Positions 511 through 62,663 of a stretch of 64,000 nt of DNA are shown piece by piece. A program made the position numbers and the translations under genes. The notes beneath the pieces are model-generated. The model did not search any database. It worked only from the letters and a program-made list of their open reading frames with translations, and was not told the origin of the DNA. Position 1 is the stretch's first letter. Every line of letters begins with the position of its first letter. This DNA is from a virus. The stretch spans positions 96,001 to 160,000 of IMG/VR virus record IMGVR_UViG_3300042923_001106; one strand, written 5' to 3'.

Positions 511-828
511 AATTGAGGGGATAATCCACTAATCAATAGATCGGCTGTGACATTTGTGAAGAAATTGGACGTAACAACTATTTTGCAACAAATGGGGATC
601 GATTGGGAAAAAGTGAAGAGGATTCTGAATAAGATCAGTTGATCGAAGGAGTCTTATCAATAAGACTCTTACATACTAAGATTATTCTGAAAAGTTTTTC
701 TTGTCGAGGAAGACCTAGCGTTAAAAAATAGCGCTGCAAAGCGATTATATAGATAAGATTATACTTAGGTGGTGATAAAATATCCCAATAAAAGATGAAT
801 TTCATCGGACGATTTGAGGTTAAACTAA

Positions 829-1746
829 ATGACATTAGAACCTACTTACGGAAGCTTTGACACCATTGGAATGGTGACCGGCCTTTCAAACGAAAGGTCA
901 TTTACCGAAGGACAGAAGGATGGGAATAACCCTTGGGTCAAAATCAATTTTGGGGTCAAGGTAAGTGATCGAGCGTTTGTATATGTTGAACTTATGGGTT
1001 CAAAAACACCAAATGTAAAAATCGCTTACCGAGATCCAATGACAAAGAAATTCAACAAGGAAGATTCGTTATTGATACCATGGGAATCAAGATATAATCC
1101 TAGTCGAATTAATTATGAAATACATATGCCAGTCAGGTTAAATCTTAATGAAAGTTCATCTGATGAGTCAATTTTAACTTCCTACGATGCTGCATGTGCT
1201 CTAAAAGAAAATTTGAATGACAGTGACATAGTTTATGTTCATGGAAATCTTCAGTTTTCGGAGTATGAAGGGAAATCAAAAGAAACGTATTGTGTAACGA
1301 GTCTTTCAAAAATAAAAGAAATGAATAAAGTAAATTACAAGCCGGTCGCTTCTTTTACTCAAGATTGTGTATTTTTGAACTGCAATAAAGATGATGAAAA
1401 GTTATTAATCGATACATACATAATTTGCAGGAAAAATGGAGATTTAACATGTATTCCTTATACGTTTGTTGCAAGATGTATTGATTTAATCGAGCATTTT
1501 GAGAACAACATTACATATGGATCATTGATTAAAGTTCATGGTAACATACATAATCGTGCCGATATTGTTAAGATTGATGGGCAACTTGTAGTAAAAGGAA
1601 TTGTTAAAGAACTAGAAATTAAAGGCGGCAATTTACTCGAAAAGGATAAGTACACCGAGGCAGATTTAACTTCAATTAGTAAAGAGAGCATTTTTGCGAC
1701 ACAGGGAACAGGATTTGGATCAATTGAGGAAGATCCGTTCGGTTAA
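829..1746 (+). CDS. OB-fold ssDNA-binding-like protein (paralog of the next gene)
   Basis: Two repeats with V(H)GN(L/I) strands, acidic C-terminus EEDPFG, similar architecture to 1865..2797. Confidence 0.6.
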   Translation: MTLEPTYGSFDTIGMVTGLSNERSFTEGQKDGNNPWVKINFGVKVSDRAFVYVELMGSKTPNVKIAYRDPMTKKFNKEDSLLIPWESRYNPSRINYEIHMPVRLNLNESSSDESILTSYDAACALKENLNDSDIVYVHGNLQFSEYEGKSKETYCVTSLSKIKEMNKVNYKPVASFTQDCVFLNCNKDDEKLLIDTYIICRKNGDLTCIPYTFVARCIDLIEHFENNITYGSLIKVHGNIHNRADIVKIDGQLVVKGIVKELEIKGGNLLEKDKYTEADLTSISKESIFATQGTGFGSIEEDPFG

Positions 1747-1864
1747 CTTGAAAGGATGTGAGTGTATAGTTAACGGTACTATAAGAAGTCCTCCATATTG
1801 ATTTAGTATATTATAAAAATAAAACATAAAAATAATAAAAAATTAAGGGAGATGTCCATACGTA

Positions 1865-2797
1865 ATGTCCGAGAAAAAAGAATTGCGTCAAGCCGAAAAC
1901 GTAGCAAAAATTGAAGGTATTGTTGCAGATATTCGTATTGAAACAAAAGAAGTAAATGGTAAACCGGCTATCAGTGGAGAAATTGATATTCTAGTCGGTG
2001 AAGATACTCATACAGTGAATGTATTTTCTTATAAGAAGAATGGAGAAGGGAAAGAGAGCGGACTATACAAGGGGTTTGTAACGGTCATGAACGATTACAA
2101 GTCCATTAAAGCACATGGAAAAGATGCTGCCGATAAAGTACGCATTACTCAAGGTCAAATCGATCTGAATGATTACTATGGGGCAGACGGACTATTGCGA
2201 TCCTTCCCACAACTCAAAACAAACTTTGTCAATCGTCTTCAGTCCGGGGATACATTTGAACCAAAGGCAGAGTTTACCCTTGAGATGGTAATTGCAGTGG
2301 TTAAGGAAGAAATGAAAGATAATGAAGCAACAGGTCGAGCGATTATTAAAGGATATGTCCCCGTTTATGGGAATAAAGTAATTCCATTCGATGTAGTAGT
2401 TGCTGAGAAAAAAGCCGTAGACTATGTTACCTCTAATTATGAAAAAGGAACAACAGTTACTGTCCACGGTGAAATTGTAAATAAGAAAGTTCTTACTACA
2501 AAAGAAGTTGAAGTTGAATTCGGTGATCCGAAAGTGGATACTTCTGAGCGAACTGTTCGAGAGTATTCTGTTAAGGGCGGGACAGCACCAAAAGACCAAG
2601 AAGATGTAAAAGCTTATAAAGTTGCTGATATCAAAAAGGGACTCGAAGAGCGAGAAAAGATGCTTGCCGAAAAGAAAGAGAAAGCAGCGAAGAAGGATAG
2701 CAACAATTCTTCATCCAACAAGAGCAAAGATCCATTTGGCGATAGTGAAGCCTTTGGAAAACCGATTGACATTAGCGATGATGACCTTCCTTTTTGA
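1865..2797 (+). CDS. phage single-stranded DNA-binding protein (SPbeta YorF-like)
   Basis: Tandem OB-like repeats, lysine-rich linker, SSB-type tail DDDLPF; directly upstream of a YorG-like ATPase. Confidence 0.75.
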   Translation: MSEKKELRQAENVAKIEGIVADIRIETKEVNGKPAISGEIDILVGEDTHTVNVFSYKKNGEGKESGLYKGFVTVMNDYKSIKAHGKDAADKVRITQGQIDLNDYYGADGLLRSFPQLKTNFVNRLQSGDTFEPKAEFTLEMVIAVVKEEMKDNEATGRAIIKGYVPVYGNKVIPFDVVVAEKKAVDYVTSNYEKGTTVTVHGEIVNKKVLTTKEVEVEFGDPKVDTSERTVREYSVKGGTAPKDQEDVKAYKVADIKKGLEEREKMLAEKKEKAAKKDSNNSSSNKSKDPFGDSEAFGKPIDISDDDLPF

Positions 2798-2829
2798 CTA
2801 TAAATGTAAAATAAATAAAGCAAAGCAAT

Positions 2830-2855
2830 GGGGTAGTTAAATAAACAACTGCCCC
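2830..2855 (+). terminator. stem-loop / probable terminator
   Basis: GGGGTAGTT...AACTGCCCC hairpin. Confidence 0.5.
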
Positions 2856-5436: not shown

Positions 5437-5744
5437 GCACAAAAGTAGTTTACATTTCAGGGCCAATGACTGGCGTAAAGGCCAATAATTTTCATGAATT
5501 TAATCGTGTAGCAGCCATTTTAAGGAATAGCGGATATGAAGTTATCAATCCTGCAGATCATGGGTGTTCGGAAAGTTTATCATGGTCAGATTATATGAGG
5601 ATGGATATTGCGGATCTCATTGAGTGCGATCTAATTGCTACTCTTGATGGGTGGGAACTCTCAAAAGGAGCAAGATTAGAGGTACATATAGCAAAAGAAT
5701 TAGGAATGGATGTTTTGGATTATCGTGAGCTGATCAACAAATAA
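5433..5744 (+). CDS. DUF4406 / nucleoside 2-deoxyribosyltransferase-like protein
   Basis: VYISGPMTG...INPA...LDGWELSKGARLE. Confidence 0.85.
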   Translation: MSTKVVYISGPMTGVKANNFHEFNRVAAILRNSGYEVINPADHGCSESLSWSDYMRMDIADLIECDLIATLDGWELSKGARLEVHIAKELGMDVLDYRELINK

Positions 5745-5784
5745 AATATATTTTTTATTGGATAGAGAAAAGGAGAATTTGAAA

Positions 5785-8108: not shown

Positions 8109-8145
8109 TCGGGGAATAAAATAATGTTTTTATTAGGAGAAGGTA

Positions 8146-8847: not shown

Positions 8848-8887
8848 ATGAAATTGGACATTTATTTGGAATAAGAGGGTAGATAAC

Positions 8888-9154: not shown

Positions 9155-9200
9155 GACCAATGAAACTGGAGTTTCATTGGATGATAAATCGGAGGATCAT

Positions 9201-9899: not shown

Positions 9900-10003
9900 G
9901 GTCAGGTTATTGTTAAGACACTTATGCAGGGAGCCGGTAGTCTTGTAATTGGTAAACTAAACAAGCAATAAAAGGGTCATTTCATTGCGATAGGAGATAG
10001 AAA

Positions 10004-10168: not shown

Positions 10169-10207
10169 TGATGAAATTAAGATTGCATTGGAATAGTAGG
10201 AGGAGAA

Positions 10208-10469: not shown

Positions 10470-10742
10470 GTGATTAATAATAAGCCAACAAATGAGGAAT
10501 TGATAAAGTGGAAACAACATCTTCAAGAACTGGACGATGAAAAGTACCCAATTGCAATAGCTGCGGTAATGGAGTCCAAAGAGAAATATACAGAAGGTGA
10601 AGCATATACTTCTGTATATTTCTTGCAAAGAAAAGTAAGAGTAGGATACTCGCAAGGTCAACGACTCATCGAGCGTATGGTACAAGATAATATTCTTCAA
10701 CCAGAAATAAAAGAGAATTATATAAGGTACAAGATCCGATAA
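10470..10742 (+). CDS. stand-alone FtsK/SpoIIIE gamma-domain protein
   Basis: SVYFLQRKVRVGYSQGQRLIERMVQDNIL matches the FtsK-gamma winged-helix pattern S..LQR..RIGY..A.RLIE. Confidence 0.75.
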   Translation: MINNKPTNEELIKWKQHLQELDDEKYPIAIAAVMESKEKYTEGEAYTSVYFLQRKVRVGYSQGQRLIERMVQDNILQPEIKENYIRYKIR

Positions 10743-10757
10743 AAGGTAGATTGCATA

Positions 10758-11215: not shown

Positions 11216-11386
11216 ATGAAGTTGGGATATGCAGTAGTAGGTAAGTTATATGGAGAACCGTGGGAGAGCATGATTTACGAGGATGCTGAAGAATGTGATA
11301 GTGCTTATCGCGATCTAGTTAACGACAGTGATTATAGTGACTTAAAGAGATGTAATGTTTATATCCATTACGAAGAATGGCGATGA
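11216..11386 (+). CDS. small hypothetical protein (56 aa)
   Basis: SD GGGGTG, ATG. Confidence 0.5.
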   Translation: MKLGYAVVGKLYGEPWESMIYEDAEECDSAYRDLVNDSDYSDLKRCNVYIHYEEWR

Positions 11387-11438
11387 AAGACGGATTTTAT
11401 TTACTAGCGAAATAGGAAAAAATCACTGGAGGGAGTCT

Positions 11439-11681: not shown

Positions 11682-11726
11682 AAAACAAATGAAAATTCAT
11701 TTTCATTTGCCGGGAAGGATGATGCA

Positions 11727-13054: not shown

Positions 13055-13091
13055 TTTATGCAAATAAAATGTTAGTTTAATTGGAGGAAGT

Positions 13092-13334
13092 ATGGGAGAG
13101 AACAATTTGACTTTGATTATTGGGGATGATTGGGAAGGCATTTATCACGATGGACTACTGATTTATGAGGGACATGAAGTGCAAAGAAGAGAGTTAGTAA
13201 ACTTAATGAAAAGCCATGAAACATTTAATGTGGAATTTAAAGCGCTCAATGATATGGGGATTGATTGGTTGCATGAGGAAGGAAGTTTACCTGAATACAT
13301 ATCTGGAATCCCATATCAGTGTATCGAGCAATAA
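13092..13334 (+). CDS. hypothetical protein
   Basis: 80 aa; stop codon inside the palindrome. Confidence 0.7.
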   Translation: MGENNLTLIIGDDWEGIYHDGLLIYEGHEVQRRELVNLMKSHETFNVEFKALNDMGIDWLHEEGSLPEYISGIPYQCIEQ

Positions 13335-13359
13335 AACCTGTATTTCATAGGGAGGAAAA

Positions 13360-14811: not shown

Positions 14812-15363
14812 ATGAGTAAATTCTTTACTGATTTGAAGGAAGTTTTAATCAATGCAGGTAGTCAAAACAATATTAATGCTTGCGGGTATTATAATGCACT
14901 CCTTCAAAATAGTAATATGCTGGATGAAATCATTGAATCATATAAAATAAACAATATGTATATAACATGGCATCCTGATGATACCGGTGATTACACTGAC
15001 GGTTTGATTCTAATTTCGTTTAGAGATTATCGCGATGGAAATTTCAAGTATAAAATACAACTTACATCGGAGCAGTCATGGGACGGATATTGTGAGTGTA
15101 CTCCTGAAACACCGCACTACAACCCAAAATATGATTGTTCGGGATACTGTGACTGGTATATCCCAACATTTTCAATTGAAAAACACACAGATATTGGACA
15201 TGAGAAATTTAAAGGTTATGCAAAAGATATGTGGGAATTAGACGCTCAATGGCAAGAAGAACTTGGAATCCACGAAGATGATAAAACAGCTGAACAAATT
15301 GCAAATATTAATCTTCAAATTGAACAACTTCTGAAGCGTAAAGAGGCGCTTAGAAATAAATAA
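14812..15363 (+). CDS. hypothetical protein
   Basis: 183 aa, SD GAGGAG. Confidence 0.75.
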   Translation: MSKFFTDLKEVLINAGSQNNINACGYYNALLQNSNMLDEIIESYKINNMYITWHPDDTGDYTDGLILISFRDYRDGNFKYKIQLTSEQSWDGYCECTPETPHYNPKYDCSGYCDWYIPTFSIEKHTDIGHEKFKGYAKDMWELDAQWQEELGIHEDDKTAEQIANINLQIEQLLKRKEALRNK

Positions 15364-15389
15364 ATTCGTGATTTCATTGAGGAGAGAAA

Positions 15390-15719
15390 ATGAAAAAGAT
15401 ATTTTTTGACATTGATAATGGAGAAGTAGTGAAACCGAGAAATATCACAGCGCCAGCATATTTAGCTGTGATAGAAGATGAAAGTTTAAAAATTACCGAA
15501 CTGTACTCATGTTTTAGCAAATTTAAGCTTGAAGCATACGGTTATAAGTGGGAGAATGCTATGCTTCATCAGGATTGTTTTGAGTGGGTTAACTATTCAT
15601 GGTTGATGAAGAGTTTACGAAAATATATATTGTTGATTGCGAAGCGCAGTGATAAAGATGACTATGAAGATGAGTATAGAGAGCATTATAGGTATTTGAG
15701 ATTCTGGAAGAGGCATTGA
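15390..15719 (+). CDS. hypothetical protein
   Basis: 109 aa. Confidence 0.7.
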   Translation: MKKIFFDIDNGEVVKPRNITAPAYLAVIEDESLKITELYSCFSKFKLEAYGYKWENAMLHQDCFEWVNYSWLMKSLRKYILLIAKRSDKDDYEDEYREHYRYLRFWKRH

Positions 15720-15749
15720 AATTGTAATTTTATAAAGAGGTGTATTTGA

Positions 15750-16288: not shown

Positions 16289-16330
16289 ATAAAATAGGAA
16301 ATTTATCTGCCGAGCAAGGAGGGAGTAATC

Positions 16331-18047: not shown

Positions 18048-18092
18048 AATAAAAGAGTATTTTCATTGACCTAAGAATAGGGAGGAAACGAG

Positions 18093-21443: not shown

Positions 21444-21498
21444 TGCTCAATAATGGTCAATAAAAGAGACATTTTATTAGATGAAAGCGAGGTGAAAG

Positions 21499-26116: not shown

Positions 26117-26145
26117 CAAATAAAATCGATATTTCATTCAATGGT

Positions 26146-26726: not shown

Positions 26727-26957
26727 ATGAGTGAGGCACTAAAAAATGCCCTATACGATGTAGTAGAAAAAGCAAAGAAATACGATGCGATTATACATCT
26801 TAGAAAAAATGGAGAAATCCATTGTGATTTTTGCGGTAAGTGTCAATGCGATGTTAAGAAGTTAGTAGCTGGACCAAGAGTTTTTATTTGCGACGAATGC
26901 ATAGAACTATGTGTTGAAGTTATTAAAGAAGAGAAAGTGAATGAGGAAGACAAATAA
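26727..26957 (+). CDS. stand-alone ClpX C4-type zinc-finger protein
   Basis: CDFCGK...[24 protein letters not shown]. Confidence 0.88.
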
Positions 26958-26999
26958 AATTATGCTTTCATTGAAGAAAGGGGCGCCTATTGGAAAAAT

Positions 27000-33848: not shown

Positions 33849-33876
33849 TAAAAGACAAATTTGATTAGGTGAGAAA

Positions 33877-34331: not shown

Positions 34332-34367
34332 AAGAGAATTTTCATTGGGAGATGAATTCAAAAGAAA

Positions 34368-35556: not shown

Positions 35557-35802
35557 AACGACGATTTTATCTGGAGGTGATTGGATTCGTTGTACAGAGT
35601 TATCGAATGGAAAGCTAATGATATTAAAGTTTATGATGTCGGCACAGATTTATCAGAGAATGAAGCAAGAGAATTATGTAATTAGGTGAAACGTGGTTTC
35701 TATCGAGATATGGAACCAATGAAAATGTTTGAAGAGGATGAGGAATGAACACGGAATACCAGTATTTAAAGACAATAAAACAAAATATTAATTGGAGGAA
35801 AT

Positions 35803-36384
35803 ATGAAGAGAAACGTTGAGGAAGATATAAAAAAGCACTGGTTCCCCGAACATAAAGCAACTTTAACTCAGTATGGAGATTTGCAAGTTCTACAATGGGC
35901 AAAGCCGGGAACTAATACATATATGTGTCGATACGTGTTCGATGGAAATAAAATGTATATTAGTGGAGATATTGGTACTGCTGTATTCTGGCTGACTTGG
36001 AAAGCAGATATCCATTCGTTCGATGATATCCATGTCGGCTACTTTGAAGAAAAGTTAACTGCTTATGAAGGTAAGCGAAGAAATTATGATGGCGATCAAG
36101 CTGAAAAAGAATTGAAAGACTGGAGAAAACGTCTCAATGAAAACGGAAAGAAATATGACCGAGAAATGATGCGGGAACTTATTAACGCTGCAAAATCGTG
36201 TTCAAGTACAGATGAGTGGACCTACGAATATGTAAATGGGACTTATCACGAATTTATTTCTGATTTGGATTATGATTACTGGGATTGGATTTATACGATT
36301 GGTGATGTAATGCCAGTTCGTATACATGGCTACTTAGTAGGATTGAAAATGGCTTCAGAACAATTAAAGCAGCAAATGAAATAA
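35803..36384 (+). CDS. conserved phage protein
   Basis: 193 aa; L.ISGDIG..VF; YFEEKL. Confidence 0.75.
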   Translation: MKRNVEEDIKKHWFPEHKATLTQYGDLQVLQWAKPGTNTYMCRYVFDGNKMYISGDIGTAVFWLTWKADIHSFDDIHVGYFEEKLTAYEGKRRNYDGDQAEKELKDWRKRLNENGKKYDREMMRELINAAKSCSSTDEWTYEYVNGTYHEFISDLDYDYWDWIYTIGDVMPVRIHGYLVGLKMASEQLKQQMK

Positions 36385-36414
36385 CTCTTTAATCATGTAT
36401 ATTGGAGGAGTTCG

Positions 36415-37785: not shown

Positions 37786-37825
37786 ATTAAAATAAAATCC
37801 TTATTTTATTGGAGGTAATATAGGA

Positions 37826-38588
37826 ATGTTTTCAAATCAAGTAAACGTAAATGGAAAGTTTATCAGCGGCACAATTCAACGAAAGGAAGCTCACCATGCA
37901 TATCTTTTTCTAAGTCAATTGAATTTGGGTGGTCGTGGAGCAAATACGTGGAACTCGAATACTCTACGAGAGATTGCAAATGAACTCAATGACGTTGCGA
38001 ACGAGCTAGATAAGCAGAACATATGAAACGAATGTTTTATCCAAGTTTTTGAGGAGGGACACATGAAACTTTGGGATATACTTAAAGATTTAAATTCAAC
38101 GGATAAATACCCAATTGGCACTAAATTCAAGTCTTTAGCTCCTTATTGGTGCGATCTGACGGCAGAAGTAAAACCGATTAATAATTATCCTGACGGCTCA
38201 AACGGAAAGACGCTAAAGTGGGAAGAGGATGTAAATGGGTGTAAGGGGAAAATCATCGGATTATACGGTGGAGCAATTAAGTATGATTGGGAATTAATTA
38301 GCGAATAAAACTAAGTTTTTATCAACTAATAGGAGGAATAAAAAAATGAAAATGTACATTATCGTTGATAAGTACAATGAAGGGTTTTACTACAACTTTG
38401 AAAAAGAAGATTTCTATATGGACATTACTGAGCAAAGTCTTCTACCTTCGAAAGAAATGGCTAAAACATATATTGAAGACCAACTATGTAGTGATTGTGT
38501 ACCAGCGGAAATCGATATTGAAAGTGTTAGTAAAATGGGTACTTGGGTATATTCTATTGAGAATGTTTGGGATGATGATAAAGAATAA
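37826..38588 (+). CDS. three small hypothetical ORFs (37826..38026; 38063..38308; 38346..38588)
   Basis: each bounded by the palindrome. Confidence 0.65.
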
Positions 38589-38736
38589 ACAAATGAAATT
38601 AATTTTTTATTCACCGAAGGAGGATAGAGACATGAAGTGTGCGTGGTTTGAGACTCTATCTAAAGAGATAAGTTTGATTAGCTTGTGGAGACAAAAGTTC
38701 TTTCCTAATGCTAAATTTACGAAAGGAGTATGATGG

Positions 38737-40751: not shown

Positions 40752-41264
40752 ATGATTAGATTGAATAAGCGAACAACAGGAATGGGCGGACATCAATCGG
40801 CACGAATGATGAAGGATGAATGGTTGACTCCACCAAATATTATAAAAGCGCTGGGCGAGTTTGATTTAGATCCGTGCTCTCCTATAAGTAGGCCATGGGG
40901 TACTGCGAAAAACCATTACACCATTTTAGACGATGGCTTATCAAAAGAATGGTTTGGTCGTGTGTGGCTAAACCCTCCGTATGGACGTGAAGCTTCGGAT
41001 TGGTTGAACAAGTTATCAATACATGGAAATGGCGTTGCATTAATCTTCGCTAGAACTGAAACAGAGATGTTCTTTGAACATGTATGGAATAAGGCAGATG
41101 CTTTGCTTTTCTTTAAAGGTCGTTTGTACTTTCATCATGTTAACGGGGAACGTGCAAGTGCGAATGCAGGAGCACCATCAGTACTTATTGCATATGGAAC
41201 TGAGAATGTTAAGTCACTTGAGTTAGTTAGTAAGTGGGGACAATTGATTAAACTAAACCAATAA
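40752..41264 (+). CDS. phage DNA N6-adenine methyltransferase (Dam-like, PF05869 type)
   Basis: DEWLTP...FDLDPC...VWLNPPYG. Confidence 0.9.
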   Translation: MIRLNKRTTGMGGHQSARMMKDEWLTPPNIIKALGEFDLDPCSPISRPWGTAKNHYTILDDGLSKEWFGRVWLNPPYGREASDWLNKLSIHGNGVALIFARTETEMFFEHVWNKADALLFFKGRLYFHHVNGERASANAGAPSVLIAYGTENVKSLELVSKWGQLIKLNQ

Positions 41265-41297
41265 AGAATTCATTTTATTACACCAAAGGAGGAAAAA

Positions 41298-42158: not shown

Positions 42159-43041
42159 GTGAAGGTGGTCAATATGAATCCATGGATTAAACAAGTTCCA
42201 GCATTCAACTTGGATTATTTCATCTTAGGAAAAGCAGTACGTATCACAGATAAAACTAAAAATAAGAAGTTTGACGGACTAATTCTAAGAAGAGAAGAAG
42301 ATAGGATCGGTGTCTCAGTAGTCGAATGGTATTCACCTATGACCGGCACATCTGAGTATATAGCTCAAACATGCTATTTTGATATTAAGGATATTGTTAA
42401 CGAGAAGTATGAAATCGAATTGCTTTAAGATAACTTATACTGGGGCGATAAACTATGAGTGTAAAACGCGAGGAGTACCTAATTATTGGTGTCGATGTGA
42501 GTGATCACTATGATGGGGATGATGACTATGATAAATACGAAAGATATTATCATAATACTGAAGTAGGTGAATTCACTCTGCTTGTTGATGGATATAGCAG
42601 AAACTACACTATCTTTGGAGAGATCATGGAGTATGGAAATGAATACGAAGGCTTACCGCTGACGGAAATAAATTTAGACGAGTTCAATGAAGCCATATAT
42701 AGAGTGAGGGATAAGGTTAGAAGTTTATTTGGAGTAACTGAGCAGCCAAGAATTTACGCATTGACCCACTGGAGTTAAATATGAGAGTAGCATCTATTGA
42801 AGTTGAAAGAGCGAAAGTTGAGTATAAAATGATTTTTAACGAAGATGCAGATGAGCATAATTTGTTTGACCTGTACCACATTGGATTAGTAACCTCATAT
42901 GGAAAATTATTTGGCGAATTAGAAAAGAGCCGTGAAATGGCATCTCTTCATATGAAATTAAGCAATAGTTTCTCGCAGGTTGGAATCAATTTAGACGATT
43001 ATCAAATCATTAATATGATCATGTGCATAATTAGGGAATAA
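42159..43041 (+). CDS. three small hypothetical ORFs (42159..42428; 42455..42778; 42781..43041)
   Basis: phage-like small proteins. Confidence 0.6.
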
Positions 43042-43072
43042 AATGAGTGTTTTATTCGAAAGGAGACGTTAA

Positions 43073-43791: not shown

Positions 43792-44401
43792 ATGAATATG
43801 AACGTTATTGAGTTTGAAACTGATGAATTATGGGAGATTGCTTACGGTGATCATGAGTTTGCGCAAGTTATAAAAAAGGATACATACAGAGAAGGTTGGT
43901 ATGAATACCACGAAATCACATTCGTCTATGATGGTGTTCAATATTCGTTTGTTTATAAGGAACATACTTCTCCGAAAGTTTGCGATAGGGAAATTGTTCA
44001 AGATGCAAAGCCAACCGAAGCGCAGCCCATCTCTGTTAATCCAGATGAAGAAGCGGAGTTCATATGGGAGAATTTGATGAAAATGGATAAGGGATATATC
44101 AGCAAAGAAGATATTAAAACAATTACAGAATTACAAACAGAATATCTTATTAGTATTGGTGTTATTAAATAAAATATGATTTTCATTGCCTAATCGGAGG
44201 TCAAGTATGGAGGATCTGATAGAGTATAGGGTTTACTATAAATTGATTATTGACCATATGGAAGCATGCACAACACCGTTAAGCGAAGATAAGGCGAACA
44301 GCACATATTTAGGTTTACTTAACAACAATGAGTGCTACGATGTCAGGATTGTTAAGGAAACTGTTAAACGCGAGATAGTAAAAGCACATCTATTACATTA
44401 A
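43792..44401 (+). CDS. two hypothetical ORFs (43792..44172; about 44207..44401)
   Basis: SDs present. Confidence 0.6.
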
Positions 44402-44447: not shown

Positions 44448-44449
44448 TA

Positions 44450-46395: not shown

Positions 46396-46475
46396 AAGTG
46401 GATTTTTGGGGAGTACCGTGACCGGCCAGAATGCGGTGGCTTAAATAAAATCATAATCTCATAGGGAGGGAAAGC

Positions 46476-46853: not shown

Positions 46854-46908
46854 ATCTCTCACTAATTGATTAGCAGTGCATAATTTTCTTGAACAATCGA
46901 GGTGAAAA

Positions 46909-47364: not shown

Positions 47365-47412
47365 GTAAAAAAAAGTCTATCTAACCATATAAAATAAAAG
47401 GAGATAATACAT

Positions 47413-47916: not shown

Positions 47917-48080
47917 GGTTGGGGGAATTATTCCCCTATGAAATAGTGGTTTCATTTGGCTTTGAGAGGAGGTGAAGTACTTTATAACTTTTGATTCATT
48001 GATAGATAATCTCGAATGAATTGCTACGGAAACAAATACGGAGCACTTACAGATTAAATAAGTTTAGAAGGGAAAAGAAA

Positions 48081-49346
48081 ATGAAGTTGCCAAACGTAAT
48101 TACGAAACGTAATGGAACAACAGTTGAATTCAAAACAGATAAAATCACAAACGCTATTAAGAAAGCAGCAGCTCAGACAGGTGAGTTTGACGTTTCCGAG
48201 GCAATACGGTTGACGCAAGGCGTTTTAGAATTAATAAATCACAGTGATTATGACAAATTAACGGTTGAAACTGTGCAGGATTTAGTGGAAGTTGTTTTGT
48301 TAGAATCTAAATATAAATCAACAGCCAAAGCATATATTATCTACCGAGAAAAACGAAAACAAGCAAGGCGAATTGATATTTTCAAACGTCGTTTAAACTT
48401 GAAGCCATTCGAATATCCAGACCTCACTAAATATAAGGAGGCCGTACAACATTCCTATTGGCTGCACACTGAGTTCAACTATACATCTGACATTCAGGAT
48501 TATAAGGTTAATATATCGGATGTTGAGAGAAATATTATTAAAAATGCAATGCTTGCGATTGCTCAGGTTGAGGTCGCAGTTAAAACTTTTTGGGGAGACT
48601 TGTATCATCGACTCCCAAAGCCGGAACTTGGATCTGTTGGGTATACATTTGCGGAAAGCGAAGTAAGGCATCATGATGCATACTCTCATTTGCTTGAAAT
48701 ATTGGGACTGAATGATGAATTTGAGAAGATCGAGAACATCCCCGAATTGTTTCAGCGCATCGACTATTTGACAAAAGGTGTGGCACTAACGCGCACAGGA
48801 AACGATAGGGATTACGCCTTATCTATTCTTTTGTTTTCTCTATTTATTGAACATGTATCGCTATTTTCGCAATTCCTGATTATCATGTCGTTTAATAAGC
48901 ATAGAAATGTTTTTAAGGGAATGTCTAATGTTATTGAGGCAACATCTAAAGAAGAGCAGATTCATGGGTTATTTGGAATAGAACTCATCAATATTATTCG
49001 CACAGAGCATCCTGAATGGTTTGATAATCGACTAGAACATTTGGTAATTGAAGCGTGTAAGGAATCTTATAAATCGGAGCAAATTGTTATTGACTGGATT
49101 TATGAATCTGGCGACTTGGATTTTTTGCCAAAAGCAACGGTTAAGGAGTTTGTTAAAAATCGTCTGAACAACTCACTTCGCAGCATAGGTTATAACCCAA
49201 TTTTCGATGTGGATGAAAATGCAATAGTAGCAACGGATTGGTTTGACACAGAGATTGTCAGTACAAAACATGTTGATTTCTTTGTGAAACGCTCGATCAA
49301 TTACAGTAAACGAACAAAAAGTATTACGGGAGACGATTTATTTTAA
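48081..49346 (+). CDS. nrdB: ribonucleotide reductase beta subunit with N-terminal ATP cone
   Basis: VITKRNG...AKAYIIYR ATP cone; QVEVAVKTFW, ESEVRHHDAY, IEHVSLFSQF, KEEQIH. Confidence 0.92.
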   Translation: MKLPNVITKRNGTTVEFKTDKITNAIKKAAAQTGEFDVSEAIRLTQGVLELINHSDYDKLTVETVQDLVEVVLLESKYKSTAKAYIIYREKRKQARRIDIFKRRLNLKPFEYPDLTKYKEAVQHSYWLHTEFNYTSDIQDYKVNISDVERNIIKNAMLAIAQVEVAVKTFWGDLYHRLPKPELGSVGYTFAESEVRHHDAYSHLLEILGLNDEFEKIENIPELFQRIDYLTKGVALTRTGNDRDYALSILLFSLFIEHVSLFSQFLIIMSFNKHRNVFKGMSNVIEATSKEEQIHGLFGIELINIIRTEHPEWFDNRLEHLVIEACKESYKSEQIVIDWIYESGDLDFLPKATVKEFVKNRLNNSLRSIGYNPIFDVDENAIVATDWFDTEIVSTKHVDFFVKRSINYSKRTKSITGDDLF

Positions 49347-49372
49347 TAAAAGACTTGGGGGATATTCATTAC

Positions 49373-51043
49373 ATGAAGTGGTTAAACGAAAATAGTAGAA
49401 ATTTTTTATCACGCGGATATTTAACAGAAGGGGTTACTCCAGAGCAGAGAATTCGTACAATTGCCAATGCCGCAGAATCCATTCTTGGCATTAAGGGATT
49501 TGCAGATAAATTTTATGAATATATTGAAAAGGGATATTATTCGCTATCCACGCCAGTATGGTCTAATTTCGGAATAAACAAAGGACTCCCTATCAGTTGC
49601 TTTGGATCATTTTTGTCAGACAGTATGGGGAGTATTCTATATACACAGTCTGAAGTTGGAATGATGAGTAAATTTGGCGGAGGTACTTCCGGTTATTTTG
49701 GTGATTTGCGTCATCGTGGAGCACCTATAAAGGATAACGGGCAATCATCAGGCTCTGTACATTTTATGAAATTATTCGAGTCAACCATGGATGTAGTAAG
49801 TCAGGGCAGTACGCGCAGAGGTAGATTCTCTCCATATTTACCAATTGACCATCCAGATATTGAAGAGTTTTTGAAGATTGGTACTGAAGGTGATCCAATT
49901 CAAGAATTGACGCACGGAGTTACTGTTAAGGATAAATGGATGAAAGAAATGATCGCAGGAGATGTTGAGAAACGCGCATTATGGGCTAAGGTTATTCAGC
50001 GTCGTGTTGAGATTGGATATCCATATATTCTTTTTGAAGATACGGTCAATAAAAATACAGTAGATGTTTATAAAGATAAAGAATTAAAGATTAAACAGAG
50101 CAACTTATGCAGTGAAATAGCATTACCAAACAACGACAAAGAATCATTTGTATGCAACCTATCGTCTATGAATTTATTGTATTATGACGAATGGAAAGAA
50201 ACAGACGCTGTTGAAACGATGGTATTTTTCCTAGATGCGGTCATGACCGATTTCCTAAATAAACTCGAACAAATGCGAGATTCTGATAAAAAAGAAGATA
50301 AACTTGCGTTTTATTTTATGGAGAGGGCATATAATTTTGCAAAAGCGCACCGTGCATTAGGATTAGGAGCATTAGGATGGCACTCCTATCTCCAATCTAA
50401 AATGATCCCCTTCGAAAGCTTGGATGCATCTAAACTAAATTCACGCATATTTAGTTTTATTCAAACAAGGGCACATAAGGCTTCGATGGAATTGGCGAAT
50501 CTTTATGGGGAACCTGAATTATTAAAGGGTTACGGTCGCCGTAATACAACATTGACTGCGATTGCACCGACAACATCTTCTGCCTTTATTTTAGGGCAAG
50601 TTTCACAAAGTATTGAACCCATTTGGTCAAATTGCTATGTAAAAGATGTTGCAAAGATGAAAGTCACAATTCAAAATACACAATTAAAGAAAGTCTTGCA
50701 GTTCTACGACAAAGACACTCGGGAAGTGTGGAATAGTATTCGAGATAATGACGGTTCCGTGCAGCATCTTGAATTTCTAAACGACAATGAAAAAGAAGTA
50801 TTCAAAACATTTAGCGAAATTGACCAGTATGTTATTTTAGATCAGGCTTCTACCCGACAACTATTTTTAGATCAAAGCCAATCATTAAATCTAATGGTCA
50901 ATCCCAAAATGCCAGCCAAGCAGATTAACGAATTATATTTGTTTGCTTGGGAGAACAATGTTAAAACACTATATTACCAACATAGTACAAATGCGGCTCA
51001 ACAATTCAGTAAGGATAAGTTATGCGTCAATTGTGAAGCGTAA
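49373..51043 (+). CDS. nrdA: ribonucleotide reductase alpha subunit (short, no ATP cone)
   Basis: PISCF, SNLCSEI, FVCNLSS, AIAPT, C-terminal CVNCEA. Confidence 0.92.
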   Translation: MKWLNENSRNFLSRGYLTEGVTPEQRIRTIANAAESILGIKGFADKFYEYIEKGYYSLSTPVWSNFGINKGLPISCFGSFLSDSMGSILYTQSEVGMMSKFGGGTSGYFGDLRHRGAPIKDNGQSSGSVHFMKLFESTMDVVSQGSTRRGRFSPYLPIDHPDIEEFLKIGTEGDPIQELTHGVTVKDKWMKEMIAGDVEKRALWAKVIQRRVEIGYPYILFEDTVNKNTVDVYKDKELKIKQSNLCSEIALPNNDKESFVCNLSSMNLLYYDEWKETDAVETMVFFLDAVMTDFLNKLEQMRDSDKKEDKLAFYFMERAYNFAKAHRALGLGALGWHSYLQSKMIPFESLDASKLNSRIFSFIQTRAHKASMELANLYGEPELLKGYGRRNTTLTAIAPTTSSAFILGQVSQSIEPIWSNCYVKDVAKMKVTIQNTQLKKVLQFYDKDTREVWNSIRDNDGSVQHLEFLNDNEKEVFKTFSEIDQYVILDQASTRQLFLDQSQSLNLMVNPKMPAKQINELYLFAWENNVKTLYYQHSTNAAQQFSKDKLCVNCEA

Positions 51044-51084
51044 TGGTTTTTCATTAGACAATATAAAAAGGGAGATATCATCGG

Positions 51085-51702
51085 ATGTTTCAATTAGAAG
51101 ATAAAGTATATATTACACAAGAAAAAACAACGGGAGTAATTAAAGAATATAATTCCGAATCAGAAGAGTATTTCATTACATATTTTCCAAAAAACACTCC
51201 AAAAAAACGTAAAAAAGATTGGTTTAAACCTAGTCAAATTCGTAAGTTTAAAAAGCCTTTGGAGATTAAAGTAAAATATTTTTCTGATATTGAAAAGATA
51301 GAAAAGATCTCTCAAGGTGACTGGATCGATCTTCGAGCTGCTGAAACTGTAGAACTTAAAGCAGGAGAATTTAAACTTATCCCACTTGGTATTGGTATGA
51401 AACTTCCAAAAGGATATGAAGCAAATCCCGTTCCTCGTTCTAGTACATTTAAAAACTGGGGAATTATCCAAACAAACTCCTTCGGAGTAATTGATAATTC
51501 TTATTCTGGAGATGATGACCAATGGTTTTTCCCGGCTTATGCTACTCGTGATACCGTTATTGAAAAGAATAGTCGAATTTGTCAGTTCCGTATTAATCGA
51601 GTTCAACCGAAAATTCAATTTACTGTAGTCCAAAATCTTGATGAGATATCTCGCGGTGGATTTGGATCAACTGGTAAAACTGACCTACCTCAATCTCGTT
51701 AA
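51085..51702 (+). CDS. dut: trimeric dUTPase with N-terminal extra domain
   Basis: [32 protein letters not shown]. Confidence 0.92.
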
Positions 51703-51771
51703 TACTACGTTTTACTCGTTTTCTCTAATGCTAATATCAGATAAAATTGTTCTTTCATTGGCTAATTTTAT

Positions 51772-53673: not shown

Positions 53674-53886
53674 ATGGTTTCGGAAGCTGCGCAAGCATTT
53701 ATTGATAGGTGTTATAAAGACGGAGTAGCAATGGCGATTCATCCGATATTCGATAGTATATATGAGATTGATGGTAAGATGCATAAGTTTACAAAGGAGG
53801 TTTTGGAAGAAATCAAGCGATCCAATAAAGTTAAAGTTCTTTATGAAGGTTCAAAATCGGCAAACTTAATGGGATTCAGGCAATAA
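53674..53886 (+). CDS. hypothetical protein
   Basis: 70 aa. Confidence 0.6.
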   Translation: MVSEAAQAFIDRCYKDGVAMAIHPIFDSIYEIDGKMHKFTKEVLEEIKRSNKVKVLYEGSKSANLMGFRQ

Positions 53887-53918
53887 AATTCATATTTTAA
53901 TAGGAGAGTAGAATACAT

Positions 53919-55687: not shown

Positions 55688-56806
55688 TTGAGCAAGTTTG
55701 AATTGAGTTTATCCAAGGATTATGTTCCATCTTGGACCGTAGTCGATGCAGTTAGAGAACTATTTCAAAATGCTCTCGACCAACAGACAACTGTTGAAGA
55801 TAATGTAATGTTCTTTAACTATGATCAAAATACCCACACTCTATACATAGGTAATAAATCATCAGTACTAAGCGCAAAGACATTGCTGCTAGGTACGTCA
55901 ACGAAGCGAGATGATCCTAATACGATTGGTCAATTCGGAGAAGGTTATAAAATCGCTACTCTTGTTTTAACCCGTCTAAACAAGAAAGTGACGTTCTACA
56001 ACTATGGAGCAAAGGAAGTCTGGAATCCTCGGTTTGTGAAGTCTAAGCGATACGAGGGAGAGGAGATTCTAACATTCTTCGTTGACAAGAAGTTCATTTG
56101 GCAGAAGGTTCCCGACAATAATCTGACTATAACCATCGAGGATATTAATCCTCATGAATATGAGCAAGTTGTTGAGTCTAATCTTCACTGTCAGGATGTT
56201 GGGGAGATAATTGAGACTTCTGCGGGAAGAATCCTATTAGATCCCAGACATGCTAAAAAGGTCTTCGTAAATGGTCTCTTTGTATGCGGAAATCGTGAAT
56301 ATACATACGGTTATGATTTCAAACCAAAGGAATTGAAGATAGACCGTGACAGAAAACTTGCAGATAACTTTGAACTCAAATGGTTAGCATCAAAGATGTG
56401 CGCTCAGGTTCAGGATCATGATATTGTTGTTGAATTGATTCGTCAAGACGCGGCTGATATCGCATTCATCTCCTCGATGAACATGTACGCCGACAACCAA
56501 ACCAAGCAGAGAAACCTTGGTGCTATCGCGGATAAGACCTATGGGCGATTTATAGAGGAACACGGCGAAAATGCTGTACCTGTGACAACTCAAGAAGAGT
56601 TTGACAAAGTGAAGAAGCAATACAAGCCTGTCATTGTTTCATCTTCATACGCTTCAATGGTTAAGAAAAGCGACATGTATAAGGCTCCAAGAGTAAAGAG
56701 GCAGACAACAAAAGATAAGTTAGAAGAATGGTATAGGAACAATAAGAAAAACCTGTCCAGTAAAGCATCTAGAAAGTTGAAAAAAATTATTGATGAAATG
56801 CAATAA
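55688..56806 (+). CDS. GHKL-type ATPase domain protein
   Basis: VRELFQNALD, GTSTK, IGQFGEGYK. Confidence 0.8.
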   Translation: MSKFELSLSKDYVPSWTVVDAVRELFQNALDQQTTVEDNVMFFNYDQNTHTLYIGNKSSVLSAKTLLLGTSTKRDDPNTIGQFGEGYKIATLVLTRLNKKVTFYNYGAKEVWNPRFVKSKRYEGEEILTFFVDKKFIWQKVPDNNLTITIEDINPHEYEQVVESNLHCQDVGEIIETSAGRILLDPRHAKKVFVNGLFVCGNREYTYGYDFKPKELKIDRDRKLADNFELKWLASKMCAQVQDHDIVVELIRQDAADIAFISSMNMYADNQTKQRNLGAIADKTYGRFIEEHGENAVPVTTQEEFDKVKKQYKPVIVSSSYASMVKKSDMYKAPRVKRQTTKDKLEEWYRNNKKNLSSKASRKLKKIIDEMQ

Positions 56807-56834
56807 AAACTAGATTTCATTAGGAGTTTCGATA

Positions 56835-57283: not shown

Positions 57284-57541
57284 ATGGCTCAAAACCCGAA
57301 AATTAAAATCGAAGAAATTATCTCTGACTTGATTTTAGGAAACGAAGATTATTTTGACATCTATACGGTTAACCATAAGAAAAAGGAAAATCTAGACTTT
57401 GTAAGAGTATATGTTACCGCATCCGGTAAAACGAAAGTGTATATTGCTAATGATGCAGGATTAGAAATTCTTGAATGGAAAGGTGCTGCTGAATTCAGGA
57501 AAGACGTAATGTTGGAAGAAGAAGAGTTTGAAAGTAAATAA
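57284..57541 (+). CDS. hypothetical protein
   Basis: 85 aa. Confidence 0.6.
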   Translation: MAQNPKIKIEEIISDLILGNEDYFDIYTVNHKKKENLDFVRVYVTASGKTKVYIANDAGLEILEWKGAAEFRKDVMLEEEEFESK

Positions 57542-57579
57542 AATAGCATTTTCATTCGAGATAAAAATAAAAGGAAAAG

Positions 57580-58801: not shown

Positions 58802-58833
58802 TCAAACAAAATTGCGATTTTATAAGGAGGTAA

Positions 58834-60631: not shown

Positions 60632-60696
60632 GACAAAAATTGGACAATAAAACCAAGATTTCATTTGGTAAGAATAAAAAGGAGAATATAAAATAA

Positions 60697-61881
60697 ATGA
60701 ATTATGAATTCGAGAAGAATAAGCTATACTCATTGATAGGTAAAAACCTATTATCAGAACTAAAGGGTAAAGAGTGTTACATTGCCGGTGGGACAATTAC
60801 CAGCCTTTTTTGTAATCGGGAAATCAACGATATCGATATTTACTTCAAAAGCGAAAAAGCATTTATCGAGTTTGTTGAATCGATTTGGGAAGATGGTAAT
60901 GGCTGGATTGTCGCAAGTACTGATAAAGCAACTTTGGTAAAATCGAGCAAATATGAAGAGTATCAAATGATTCACTTCAAATTCTTTCCGAATGCTGAAG
61001 ATATCTTTAAAGCATTTGATTTTACAGTTTGTATGGGGGCGTTTGATTTTGAAACAGAAACATTCAAATTACACCCAGACTTTTTACAGCATAATTCACA
61101 ACGTATTCTGAAATACAACGCAAACACAGCGTTTCCTATCGTTTCGTTACTTCGTGTTCAAAAATACAAAGATAAAGGTTATACAATCTCTAAGCCAGAA
61201 CTCATCCGAATCGTCTTATCATGTATGAATTTAGAAATAAATACATATGAAGAGTTAAAAGAGCAAATGGGTGGAATGTATGGGGTTAATTACGATAAGT
61301 TGTTCAAAGATAAAGAAGGCAAAGTTGACATAAAAGAAGCAATAGATGTTATTGCGAATTTAAGTCTTAGCGAAGATTACTTTAAGGCTCCAGAATCAAT
61401 TGGCCAAGAAATGTGTAGTATGGAAGACTATTTAGATGATATCGCGAAAACCCCAATTCCGTATACAGTAATCGATGATGAAGTATTTCGATTGTCAAAA
61501 GGAAAATTGAAGCCATCAAATAAGAAGCCAAAAATTGGAGATTTATTCGATTATAAAGAGTTTTTAAGAGGGAAGAAATTTTATAAATTTGTGAAGAAGA
61601 AGGAGGGAAAATATTATAGTTTTTATGATTCTAATTTTGAATATGCCGTAGGTAAAAAGGTATTTGCAGTAGGAGATAAATATACTAGTGATCCAGTGCT
61701 TTATTTTGTTTACCTAGATACTGTAGAATCGGCTACATACAGAAACGAAAAGGAGAGAGTATTGATTGAAGTGGAATTTGATATTGATGATCTTTCAAGT
61801 ATAGATGAGGATACAATAGAGTTAAAGGCATGCACTATGATAAGAGAAGTACCTGAGACTGAATATAAACAACATTTGTGA
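60697..61881 (+). CDS. nucleotidyltransferase (IAGG...DxD type) paralog 3 with C-terminal extra domain
   Basis: YIAGGTITS...NDIDIYF...FDFTVCMGA...RVQKYKDKG. Confidence 0.78.
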   Translation: MNYEFEKNKLYSLIGKNLLSELKGKECYIAGGTITSLFCNREINDIDIYFKSEKAFIEFVESIWEDGNGWIVASTDKATLVKSSKYEEYQMIHFKFFPNAEDIFKAFDFTVCMGAFDFETETFKLHPDFLQHNSQRILKYNANTAFPIVSLLRVQKYKDKGYTISKPELIRIVLSCMNLEINTYEELKEQMGGMYGVNYDKLFKDKEGKVDIKEAIDVIANLSLSEDYFKAPESIGQEMCSMEDYLDDIAKTPIPYTVIDDEVFRLSKGKLKPSNKKPKIGDLFDYKEFLRGKKFYKFVKKKEGKYYSFYDSNFEYAVGKKVFAVGDKYTSDPVLYFVYLDTVESATYRNEKERVLIEVEFDIDDLSSIDEDTIELKACTMIREVPETEYKQHL

Positions 61882-61897
61882 GTAATAAGTTGAGGAG

Positions 61898-62623
61898 ATG
61901 ATATTAATTAGAACATTGGCGATTTCGGATATTCACGGCTGCTATGATGAGTTTAATGCTTTGCTGAAAAAGGTTGGATACAACCCACACGAAGATAAAC
62001 TAATCCTTCTTGGAGACTATGTTGATCGAGGACAGAAAAGCAAAGAAACTGTAGACCAAATTCGATATTTAGTTAAAGATTACAATGTCATTGCTCTTCG
62101 TGGAAATCATGATCAAATGTTTCTTGATGCATTGAACAACGATGAAGACTATATATTCCTTCATAATGGCGGCATACATACAATTGAAAGTTACTGCGGA
62201 CTTAATTGGTTTGAAAACTGTGATGGATTTGATTATGACAGATATATTGTAGCAAAGAAGTTCATTAAGTCGAACTATAGTGAGCACATCGATTTTCTAG
62301 AAAGCCTGCCACATTATCATGAGGATGACTCGCATATCTACGTTCATGCAGGTCTGAGTCCATCATATGAAAATTGGAGAGAACAACCTGCTGAGAACTT
62401 TATTTGGATTAGAGATGTATTCTTAAACAATAGAACGATTGTTGATAAGACAGTTATCTTTGGACACACTCCGACGGTGAATTTTCAACAAACATCAAAC
62501 GTTTGGTTTGCTGGTGATAAGATTGGAGTAGACGGTGGGTGCTGCTTTGGTTATGCATTGAACTGCTTGGAAATATCTCAAGATGGATACCTCGAATATT
62601 CAGTGAAAAGAGGAAGCAAATGA
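61898..62623 (+). CDS. metallophosphoesterase (Ser/Thr phosphatase PPP-like)
   Basis: DIHG, GDYVDRG, RGNHD, HAG, FGHT. Confidence 0.92.
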   Translation: MILIRTLAISDIHGCYDEFNALLKKVGYNPHEDKLILLGDYVDRGQKSKETVDQIRYLVKDYNVIALRGNHDQMFLDALNNDEDYIFLHNGGIHTIESYCGLNWFENCDGFDYDRYIVAKKFIKSNYSEHIDFLESLPHYHEDDSHIYVHAGLSPSYENWREQPAENFIWIRDVFLNNRTIVDKTVIFGHTPTVNFQQTSNVWFAGDKIGVDGGCCFGYALNCLEISQDGYLEYSVKRGSK

Positions 62624-62663
62624 AATTATCCTTTTATGGGATATTTAATATAGGAGTGATGAT

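Follow-up and report, generated by a model that had tools for sequence, protein, structure and literature searches.

The 64,000-bp stretch analysed here, hereafter the window, comprises bases 96001-160000 of a single virus record of 183,208 bp with 35.8% G+C (IMGVR_UViG_3300042923_001106), and its gene boundaries carry many copies of a short spaced palindrome, ATRAAA-N6-TTTYAT. Positions are given in window coordinates, except for those prefixed with G000, which refer to the whole virus record. Between 47 and 171 kb of the genome nearly all genes lie on the plus strand, with the structural genes on the minus strand at either end. The proteins encoded in the window include AAA_24/YorG-like, primase-like and RecJ/YorK-like proteins, ribonucleotide reductase (RNR), ThyX, Gad1, a methyltransferase, and a LAGLIDADG protein. 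Homologues of the SPbeta proteins MrpR, YopP, YopQ, YomM, YorK, and YorG are present in the genome, and YopQ/SroE-like (DndB domain) and MrpR/YopR-like lysogeny genes are located directly upstream of the window, which identifies the phage as an SPbeta-like temperate phage, as a previous interpretation made without database searches (the sequence-only reading) had suggested. The RecJ-like protein shares at most 41% identity with proteins of known large siphoviruses such as KKP_3916, Sundance, vB_BcoS-136, FADO, and Tsamsa, and 58-60% with Paenibacillus prophage proteins. A megablast search of 20 kb against the phage collection gave no match, and no related loci were found among viral contigs searched with the RecJ-like protein.

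Abundance and placement of the palindrome

The window contains 28 exact copies of ATRAAA-N6-TTTYAT, compared to 0.23 expected from 100 dinucleotide shuffles (maximum 2), in close agreement with the 27 copies and the chance expectation of less than one copy given by the sequence-only reading. In the whole genome we found 76 exact copies, almost all of them in the plus-strand gene block at 47-171 kb. The 6-bp spacer proposed earlier is indeed fixed, as each of the alternative spacer lengths of 0-5 and 7-12 bp yields only 0-4 copies in the genome. Copies with one mismatch are threefold enriched genome-wide (48 vs. 14.7 in order-2 Markov controls), and copies with two mismatches are at background level in the same type of control (131 vs. 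154). Together, the exact and one-mismatch intergenic copies in the genome number about 112.

As anticipated, the palindrome is located at gene boundaries: each of the 28 exact copies in the window is intergenic, and half of them (14) have the upstream stop codon in the TRA of their left arm. Among the genome-wide copies with no or one mismatch, 100 of 124 lie between two plus-strand genes, and the left arm provides the stop codon in 40 of these 100 (26/65 exact and 14/35 one-mismatch copies). The next start codon mostly follows 10-40 nt past the right arm, and the palindrome, which thus precedes start codons, lacks an associated promoter. The individual cases selected in the sequence-only reading were largely reproduced, with all 14 listed near-copies found in place as copies with one or two mismatches and all 13 listed stop-codon overlaps agreeing with the called gene ends. 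Its near-empty unit with a Shine-Dalgarno (SD) sequence at 46392-46462 does not hold up, consisting of a three-mismatch copy followed by a one-mismatch copy 53 bp further on with no clear SD between them.

Aligned copies give the extended consensus c.AATRAAAt-N4-aTTTYATT.g, which is symmetric to about 24 bp. The pairing R/Y positions of the two arms show no covariation (A..C, 25; A..T, 22; G..T, 17; G..C, 12), indicating that each half-site is read separately.

The palindrome is also found in related phages. In the Paenibacillus ferrarius genome (9.2 Mb; GCA_002027705.1), at least 47 of 80 copies are concentrated in one low-GC prophage of about 170 kb. This prophage has only 46/294 proteins in common with the phage studied here and yet keeps the motif, which is therefore far better conserved than the genes it separates; at this distance, the prophage could not be used for breakpoint mapping. 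A host factor acting on the motif was considered and appears unlikely, as the copies in the P. ferrarius host chromosome are near background only. SPbeta contains 14 exact palindromes compared to one in the reversed control, three of which sit on the stop codons of yoqY, yorT, and yorZ. Full-text literature searches (SPBRE, stoperator, SroF, and SPbeta combined with palindrome, intergenic, or recombination) retrieved no description of the element.

Exchange of gene blocks at the palindromes

Judged from genome comparisons, the sites are well supported as preferred exchange points of gene blocks. Contigs from other samples were found through identical proteins, and most of them are identical to this genome (L022-L026, L028, L039-L041). 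Two contigs, L021 from a Joint Genome Institute (JGI) metagenome and L027 from a Logan assembly, are 99.4-99.97% identical to window positions 34450-47957 and 51738-66806, and instead of the RNR block of the window (Table 1) contain an unrelated 4.6-kb block with Acb2/Tad1-like, NrdI, NrdE, NrdF, thioredoxin-like, and PRA-PH genes, exchanging a three-gene block for a six-gene block. On the left side, the identity stops 2 bp past the right arm of the site at 47938, and on the right side it restarts 3 bp ahead of the left arm of the site at 51741. Both border sites, including their centres, are retained in L021 and L027. The BLAST match extends 19 bp further on the left because two ribosome-binding sites happen to be alike. 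The sequence-only reading had suggested testing whether gene gains and losses in relatives break exactly within the N6 core. Here, in a relative with 99.95% identity to this phage, both breakpoints are located 2-3 bp from the outer site edges.

Contig ends of the Logan assemblies fall inside sites in 3 of about 15 cases; as graph branching makes these ambiguous, they were not used as evidence. A scan of IMG/VR for the two centres at the swap borders (18 specified bases each) returned 3 and 18 matches with unrelated flanks, which look like chance occurrences. Two of these matches belong to palindrome-rich uncultivated phages, contigs L089 (IMGVR_UViG_3300029288_000086, 143 kb; 15 copies in 12.6 kb) and L101 (IMGVR_UViG_3300021399_000119, 116 kb; 7 copies in 13.1 kb), which have no DNA similarity to this phage.

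The RNR genes of the window (48064-51044) also have counterparts in the P. ferrarius prophage, with 78% DNA identity and 80-85% protein identity. These values are far above the 30-60% of the other shared proteins, suggesting a separate, older transfer of the block. The homology ends at the gene edges, with no sites nearby.

A broader comparison was possible within the SPbeta family, for which 12-20 kb of the early region of each of seven phages (SPbeta, Goe13, phi3T, SPbetaL2, L4, L8, and SPR) were analysed using TRAAA-N6-TTTYA as the core of the site. Homology breakpoints occur no more than 10 bp from a site core in 71 of 228 cases, compared to 5.3 expected if they were distributed uniformly; about half of the breakpoints are intergenic, and approximately 11% of the intergenic positions lie within this distance of a core. 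At the level of gene junctions, a breakpoint is present at 50 of the 54 junctions that have a site (93%), vs. 71 of the 200 that do not (36%) (odds ratio 22.7, Fisher P = 9e-15). This P value overstates the case, because breakpoints are not independent across related genomes, but the effect is still large. For SPbeta alone, the corresponding numbers are 8/8 junctions with a site and 10/34 without.

The centres of these sites occur in identical order in the seven phages (TTAACT, ATTTAC, TGTAAG, GATGCA, GTAAAA ... AGACTG ... GATAGT, TATTTA, ACGATA, GTAATT, TGATAA), and the flanks change around them. Among pairs of sites with the same centre, 64 have unrelated 60-bp flanks on both sides and 63 on one side. 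The AGACTG site is one example, where five or more different genes end on the left arm and four or more different ones begin past the right arm. At two SPbeta-family sites, the C/T base of the right arm is inherited together with the right flank, indicating a crossover at this base or to its left. The site with the TGATAA centre (SPbeta 99498-99513) reads TTATCA in phi3T (L034 13287-13302), where it is in the opposite orientation and about 15 bp of flank are inverted as well.

If the centres matter for exchange, two identical ones within a genome should promote deletions or inversions, and their uniqueness was therefore tested. No duplicate centre exists among the 112 intergenic sites in either orientation, compared to 6.8 pairs expected from column shuffles (P = 0.0002); thus, the earlier remark that every copy has its own spacer sequence is correct, and the pattern is non-random. 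The P. ferrarius prophage and SPbeta also lack duplicates (0 vs. 2.2 and 0 vs. 0.8 pairs expected, respectively). Control 6-mers at fixed offsets beside the sites have duplicates at or above expectation and are not depleted. Between the P. ferrarius prophage and this phage, two centres are shared, corresponding to chance level (2.4). The centres thus look position-specific rather than freely heterologous and fit an exchange between like centres, in disagreement with the recombinase tolerating heterologous cores that was initially invoked, given that the centres are unique and kept in place while the flanks change.

Proposed recombination joints and competing explanations

Three proteins with a tyrosine-recombinase fold, YomM-like, YopP-like, and MrpR-like, are common to this phage, the P. 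ferrarius prophage, and SPbeta. Aligned to the structures 4a8e (XerC-like) and 5hxy (XerA), the YomM-like protein shows every residue of the catalytic R-K-H-R-H-Y set. The YopP-like protein, for which no match was found among PDB sequences, keeps Arg-I, both His, and the Tyr. In five further phages, motif counts were compared to a reversed control and homologues were searched for. The motif is clearly enriched in FADO (34:2), Tsamsa (29:5), and KKP_3916 (14:1), weakly in vB_BcoS-136 (26:12), and not in Sundance (7:5). YopP-like and MrpR-like proteins are encoded in all five, and a full-length YomM-like protein in FADO, Tsamsa, and vB_BcoS-136 but not in KKP_3916 and Sundance; no SroE/YopQ-like homologue was detected in any of them. 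A YopP-like protein is thus present in every motif-enriched genome tested, making it the best co-occurring candidate, and the YomM-like protein is the best catalytic candidate.

Unique centres, common arms, and islands of 16-18 bp between unrelated flanks tilt the interpretation to a recombinase-type exchange of like with like. We consider the chances about even that the palindromes are position-specific recombination joints and that exchange is their selected, enzyme-catalysed function. More tentatively, and with less confidence than for the joints as such, we propose a natural genome-wide cassette exchange, in which about 40-110 sites per genome with shared arms and private centres would allow a phage YopP-like or YomM-like recombinase to join only matching junctions, swapping accessory and anti-defence blocks in register. 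In the joint explanation itself, the symmetric arms AATRAAA and TTTYATT would dock two subunits of a phage-encoded protein, and the 6-bp centre between them would be private to its gene junction. When related phages meet through co-infection or infection of a lysogen, exchange between sites with like centres may replace the gene block lying between two joints. The putative catalyst would be one of the two candidate tyrosine recombinases, probably requiring identity of the centres. Gene order and expression signals would be preserved, since the upstream stop codon is located within or ahead of the left arm and the ribosome-binding site of the next gene past the right arm, and the predicted outcome is an ordered cassette exchange of accessory genes, including those for nucleotide metabolism and anti-defence. 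The mobile cassettes postulated by the sequence-only reading are thus retained insofar as the sites coincide with points of block exchange and tyrosine-recombinase genes are present, but not in their integron-type anatomy.

Several observations weigh against enzyme-catalysed joints. The 36% of site-free junctions in the SPbeta family that also have breakpoints, and the non-independence of these breakpoints, reduce the force of the junction test, and the gene calls are from our own simple caller. Four laboratory hybrids (phi3Ts/phi3T x SPbeta) have all their major parental switches inside identical tracts of 1.4-18 kb, so that these switches are explained by ordinary homologous recombination and cannot be placed on a site, even if several of the identical tracts start or stop on one. 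In the lineage of this phage a single non-homologous swap was available for examination. Moreover, a 650-bp patch at 61884-62532, extending from the start of the metallophosphatase gene into its interior, is about 12% diverged from L027, with neither end at a palindrome; ordinary homologous exchange therefore occurs as well. With 6-8 bp, the site arms fall short of the 11-13 bp found in dif, lox, and FRT. With regard to the candidate enzymes, the YomM catalytic set is also intact in P. ferrarius, but SPbeta YomM has a Lys at the second Arg, and in the YopP-like proteins of this phage and SPbeta the second Arg is likewise a Lys; in P. ferrarius it is an Arg. The Alicyclobacillus phage KKP_3916 is motif-enriched yet has no full-length YomM-like gene, and the Brevibacillus phage Sundance has a YopP-like gene yet no motif enrichment. 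Finally, both the breakpoints at the sites and the retention of the centres could have a passive origin if the sites were conserved for another reason and were the only sequence that unrelated blocks have in common.

Such a passive origin is part of the most serious alternative, a dispersed operator, which we regard as possible but on the whole unlikely. Here, a dimeric phage protein would silence, roadblock, or organize the early/accessory arm in a stoperator-like manner, and crossovers would be a by-product at sites that are the sole conserved islands between unrelated genes, used by short-homology recombination (Sak4-like YorG, RecJ-like YorK). Symmetric half-sites without covariation would suit such a protein, as would the distribution of about 100 copies in the plus-strand early block and few in the structural block, and the laboratory hybrids do arise by ordinary homologous recombination. 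SPbeta-like phages also have a second, uncharacterised repressor, SroE (bioRxiv 10.1101/2025.11.27.690993). However, an operator gives no reason for unique centres, and islands of 16-18 bp between unrelated flanks require recombination within the site or right at its border, a short stretch for an exchange driven by homology. SroE/YopQ (DndB-like) was also considered as the binder and rejected, as no homologue was detected in the five related phages, including the clearly motif-enriched FADO, Tsamsa, and KKP_3916. The location in short intergenic gaps resembles the stoperators of cluster A mycobacteriophages (L5 gp71 type), of which dozens are distributed over a temperate phage genome, but those are asymmetric 13-bp sites bound by a monomer and oriented with transcription (PMC9283540), whereas the palindrome is symmetric, has variable centres, and has no linked repressor. 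The operator of a repressor or nucleoid-associated protein that the sequence-only reading listed as an alternative is thus possible, but not with the known MrpR/SroF, which uses a different box.

This different box is the SPbeta repeated element (SPBRE), bound by the recombinase-fold repressor MrpR (YopR, SroF) (PMC10516654), and in phi3T, monomeric SroF recognizes an asymmetric A-tract box of 26 bp (bioRxiv 10.1101/2025.11.27.690993). We give very little credence to the palindrome being this phage's SPBRE, that is, the operator of a MrpR/SroF-like master repressor. The two elements have the same phage group, the repeated nature, and (putatively, for the palindrome) a binder with tyrosine-recombinase fold in common, and a MrpR homologue is present here. 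Yet SPBRE is an asymmetric, monomer-bound, ACAAAtACAAAAAATATGTATATAAT-like sequence at about 10 promoters, and the palindrome, which differs from it, coexists elsewhere in SPbeta; peaks in chromatin affinity precipitation sequencing (ChAP-seq) were found only on SPBRE, with none reported on the palindromes. Furthermore, Sundance encodes a MrpR homologue without palindrome enrichment. When we located SPBRE at all 10 published SPbeta ChAP-seq targets, it was found to be an A-rich, promoter-overlapping ACAAAtACAAAAAATATGTATATAAT-type box unrelated to the palindrome, and its identity with the latter was rejected. The phage studied here has promoter-linked ATAAAATAAAAGTAT-type boxes that resemble the SroF box and are likelier MrpR targets. 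These A-tract boxes, ATAAAATAAA(A/T)GTAT(A/G)ATAT, overlap -35/-10 elements and resemble the phi3T SroF box (two A-tracts) as well as SPBRE. They are found at 459-480 (G000:96459), 26194-26210, and 36640-36660 in the window and at G000:43116, 43720, 44048, 48627-48649, 64956, and 148581-148599, and are likely operators of the phage's MrpR homologue.

A role in RNA, as an intercistronic hairpin for mRNA processing or stability or for termination-reinitiation coupling of translation, is improbable. The sites are indeed placed between stop codon and following SD in pairs of genes with the same orientation, with the stop in the left arm in about 40%, and intercistronic hairpins similar to repetitive extragenic palindromic elements are a known kind. 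The potentially pairing R/Y positions vary independently, however, with A..C being the commonest combination, and the sequence of the arms is itself conserved beyond mere pairing. Predicted folds are weak, averaging -2.5 kcal/mol over 24 nt, pairing between the arms is part of the minimum free energy structure in only 14 of 28 copies, and the window has no Rfam match at gathering thresholds. An RNA element would also leave the breakpoints and the unique centres unexplained. The RNA processing or binding site suggested earlier as a further alternative has therefore become a weak one.

Even less probable is the integron-like arrangement favoured by the sequence-only reading, in which right arm, SD, open reading frame (ORF), and left arm would form a single-gene circle inserted anywhere by a core-indifferent recombinase. 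Inverted arms flanking a 6-bp core, a left arm that contains the stop codon, the presence of tyrosine-recombinase genes, and the exchange of a block at site edges agree with it. Integron attC sites are imperfect palindromes of about 57-141 bp with R''-L''...L'-R' boxes that recombine at attI in a folded, single-stranded form, and integron cassettes are single, mostly promoterless genes without conserved order. As in our sites, the cassette stop codon often lies in attC, and a tyrosine recombinase acts there. In contrast, the sites described here are perfect-type palindromes of 18-24 bp with symmetric 6-8 bp arms and a fixed 6-bp centre, and we identified no attI/Pc platform or integron-type integrase. 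The notion of one gene per unit also fails: only 40 of the 102 intervals from one site to the next contain a single gene, with 12 containing no gene and 50 containing 2-17, and the observed swap involves three vs. six genes. Free insertion would moreover scramble the centres, which are unique and keep their position and order in the SPbeta relatives.

The proposed recombination joints also have parallels among other recombination systems. The pdif (XerC/XerD) sites flanking dif modules on Acinetobacter plasmids have two unlike 11-bp arms, are acted on by host Xer, number a handful per plasmid, and are not known to have private centres. They are similar in their short inverted arms, 6-bp centre, gene blocks in differing contexts, and an Xer-type recombinase as the presumed catalyst; here, about 110 symmetric sites with 6-8 bp arms and private centres are found in a phage genome with phage-encoded candidate enzymes. 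Compared to Xer/dif sites in general, the 6-bp centre is strict, the arms have 6-8 instead of 11 bp, and the inner arm is TRAAA vs. ATAA in dif. Heterospecific lox and FRT sites, with 13-bp arms and 8-bp spacers, are used in engineered Cre/FLP cassette exchange, where only sites with the same spacer recombine. Identical arms combined with differing spacers follow the logic suggested by our unique, position-keeping centres, but that system is engineered, and the like-centre requirement here is an inference. To our knowledge, no natural genome-wide array of heterospecific sites has been described. The promoter-early stem-loop (PeSL) of T4-type phages, a promoter plus RNA stem-loop thought to act through homologous recombination, is likewise a repeated element between genes, bordering small accessory genes in hyperplastic regions and serving as a marker of modular shuffling among related phages; the palindrome differs from it in having no promoter, a weak hairpin, a strict 6-6-6 geometry, and private centres.

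New here are the swap resolved to the base in the lineage of this phage, the breakpoint test at the level of junctions, and the test of centre uniqueness. They bear on the question whether phage mosaicism stems from random illegitimate joins filtered by selection or from dedicated linker sequences, as here a countable linker marks the joins. As SPbeta and phi3T, both amenable to genetics in Bacillus subtilis, also carry the motif, this question is directly testable. The blocks between the joints hold anti-defence genes (Gad1, Gad2-like, Acb2/Tad1-like), methyltransferases, and nucleotide-metabolism modules, and the sites may set the pace at which counter-defence genes are re-assorted. If the proposed exchange is true, it would constitute an enzymatic mechanism for ordered phage mosaicism and, if like centres are required, a natural counterpart of engineered heterospecific-site cassette exchange.

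Site coordinates and further genomic features

Table 1. Palindromic sites in the window (all exact sites, and the one-mismatch copies without a remark, are intergenic), the exchangeable block, and genes for proteins with a tyrosine-recombinase fold.
Feature	Coordinates	Strand	Centre	Remarks
Exact site	788..805		GATGAA	
Exact site	5741..5758		TATATT	TAA is upstream stop
Exact site	8116..8133		TAATGT	
Exact site	9160..9177		CTGGAG	
Exact site	9968..9985		GGGTCA	
Exact site	11383..11400		GACGGA	TGA is upstream stop
Exact site	11689..11706		ATTCAT	
Exact site	13331..13348		CCTGTA	TAA is upstream stop
Exact site	18049..18066		GAGTAT	directly upstream of Gad1 gene
Exact site	21460..21477		GAGACA	
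Exact site	26120..26137		TCGATA	after primase-like gene
Exact site	26954..26971		TTATGC	TAA is upstream stop
Exact site	32494..32511		TCTAAA	TGA is upstream stop
Exact site	32673..32690		TATAAC	
Exact site	34328..34345		GAGAAT	TAA is upstream stop
Exact site	35553..35570		CGACGA	TAA is upstream stop; identical in relative L021
Exact site	37792..37809		TCCTTA	
Exact site	38023..38040		CGAATG	TGA is upstream stop
Exact site	38305..38322		CTAAGT	TAA is upstream stop
Exact site	38593..38610		TTAATT	
Exact site	43038..43055		TGAGTG	TAA is upstream stop
Exact site	44169..44186		TATGAT	TAA is upstream stop
Exact site	47938..47955		TAGTGG	left border of swapped block
Exact site	51741..51758		TTGTTC	right border of swapped block
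Exact site	56803..56820		ACTAGA	TAA is upstream stop
Exact site	57538..57555		TAGCAT	TAA is upstream stop
Exact site	60647..60664		CCAAGA	sparsely diverged stretch vs. L027 begins at last centre base
Exact site	62620..62637		TTATCC	TGA is upstream stop
One-mismatch copy	8848..8865			
One-mismatch copy	10171..10188			
One-mismatch copy	10739..10756			TAA is upstream stop
One-mismatch copy	13064..13081			
One-mismatch copy	15360..15377			TAA is upstream stop
One-mismatch copy	15716..15733			TGA is upstream stop
One-mismatch copy	16289..16306			
One-mismatch copy	33848..33865			
One-mismatch copy	36376..36393			upstream stop inside centre
One-mismatch copy	41261..41278			TAA is upstream stop, after Dam-like gene
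One-mismatch copy	46445..46462			
One-mismatch copy	53883..53900			TAA is upstream stop
One-mismatch copy	58806..58823			
Exchangeable block	47958..51737	+		ATP-cone RNR small subunit, RNR large subunit, dUTPase-like gene
YomM-like gene	G000:13680-14663	-		PF00589, 70.9 bits (cut-off 27.1); outside window
YopP-like gene	G000:40338-41378	+		PF00589, 38 bits (cut-off 27.1); outside window
MrpR/SroF-like gene	G000:92993-93991			just upstream of window

The lysogeny module at G000:91682-95327 (locus L022, 226-4467) encodes the YopQ/SroE-like and MrpR-like proteins, a membrane protein, AgrB, a 41-amino-acid ORF, and a LytTR-only protein, representing an Agr-like peptide system that replaces arbitrium. 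The two ends of the record (G000:1-2346 and 180657-183208) share a direct repeat, which is imperfect (93.5% over 465 bp and 90% over 782 bp) and does not amount to an exact terminal redundancy.

At 7190-8108, the C5 DNA methylase gene is split into ORFs of 212 and 96 amino acids, as it is in contig L022. The gene is intact in the near-identical contig L023 (305-amino-acid ORF), from which it differs by one indel. The segment at 27400-30950 stands out by a G+C fraction of 0.43 vs. 0.35, overlapping mini-genes, and zero palindromes; the Logan contigs L024 and L025 stop at its left edge (27416-27429), as internal repeats predict. Lastly, a free-standing LAGLIDADG endonuclease gene (62763-63605) is located between the metallophosphatase gene and the gene for the DNA polymerase III alpha subunit (63673-66723).

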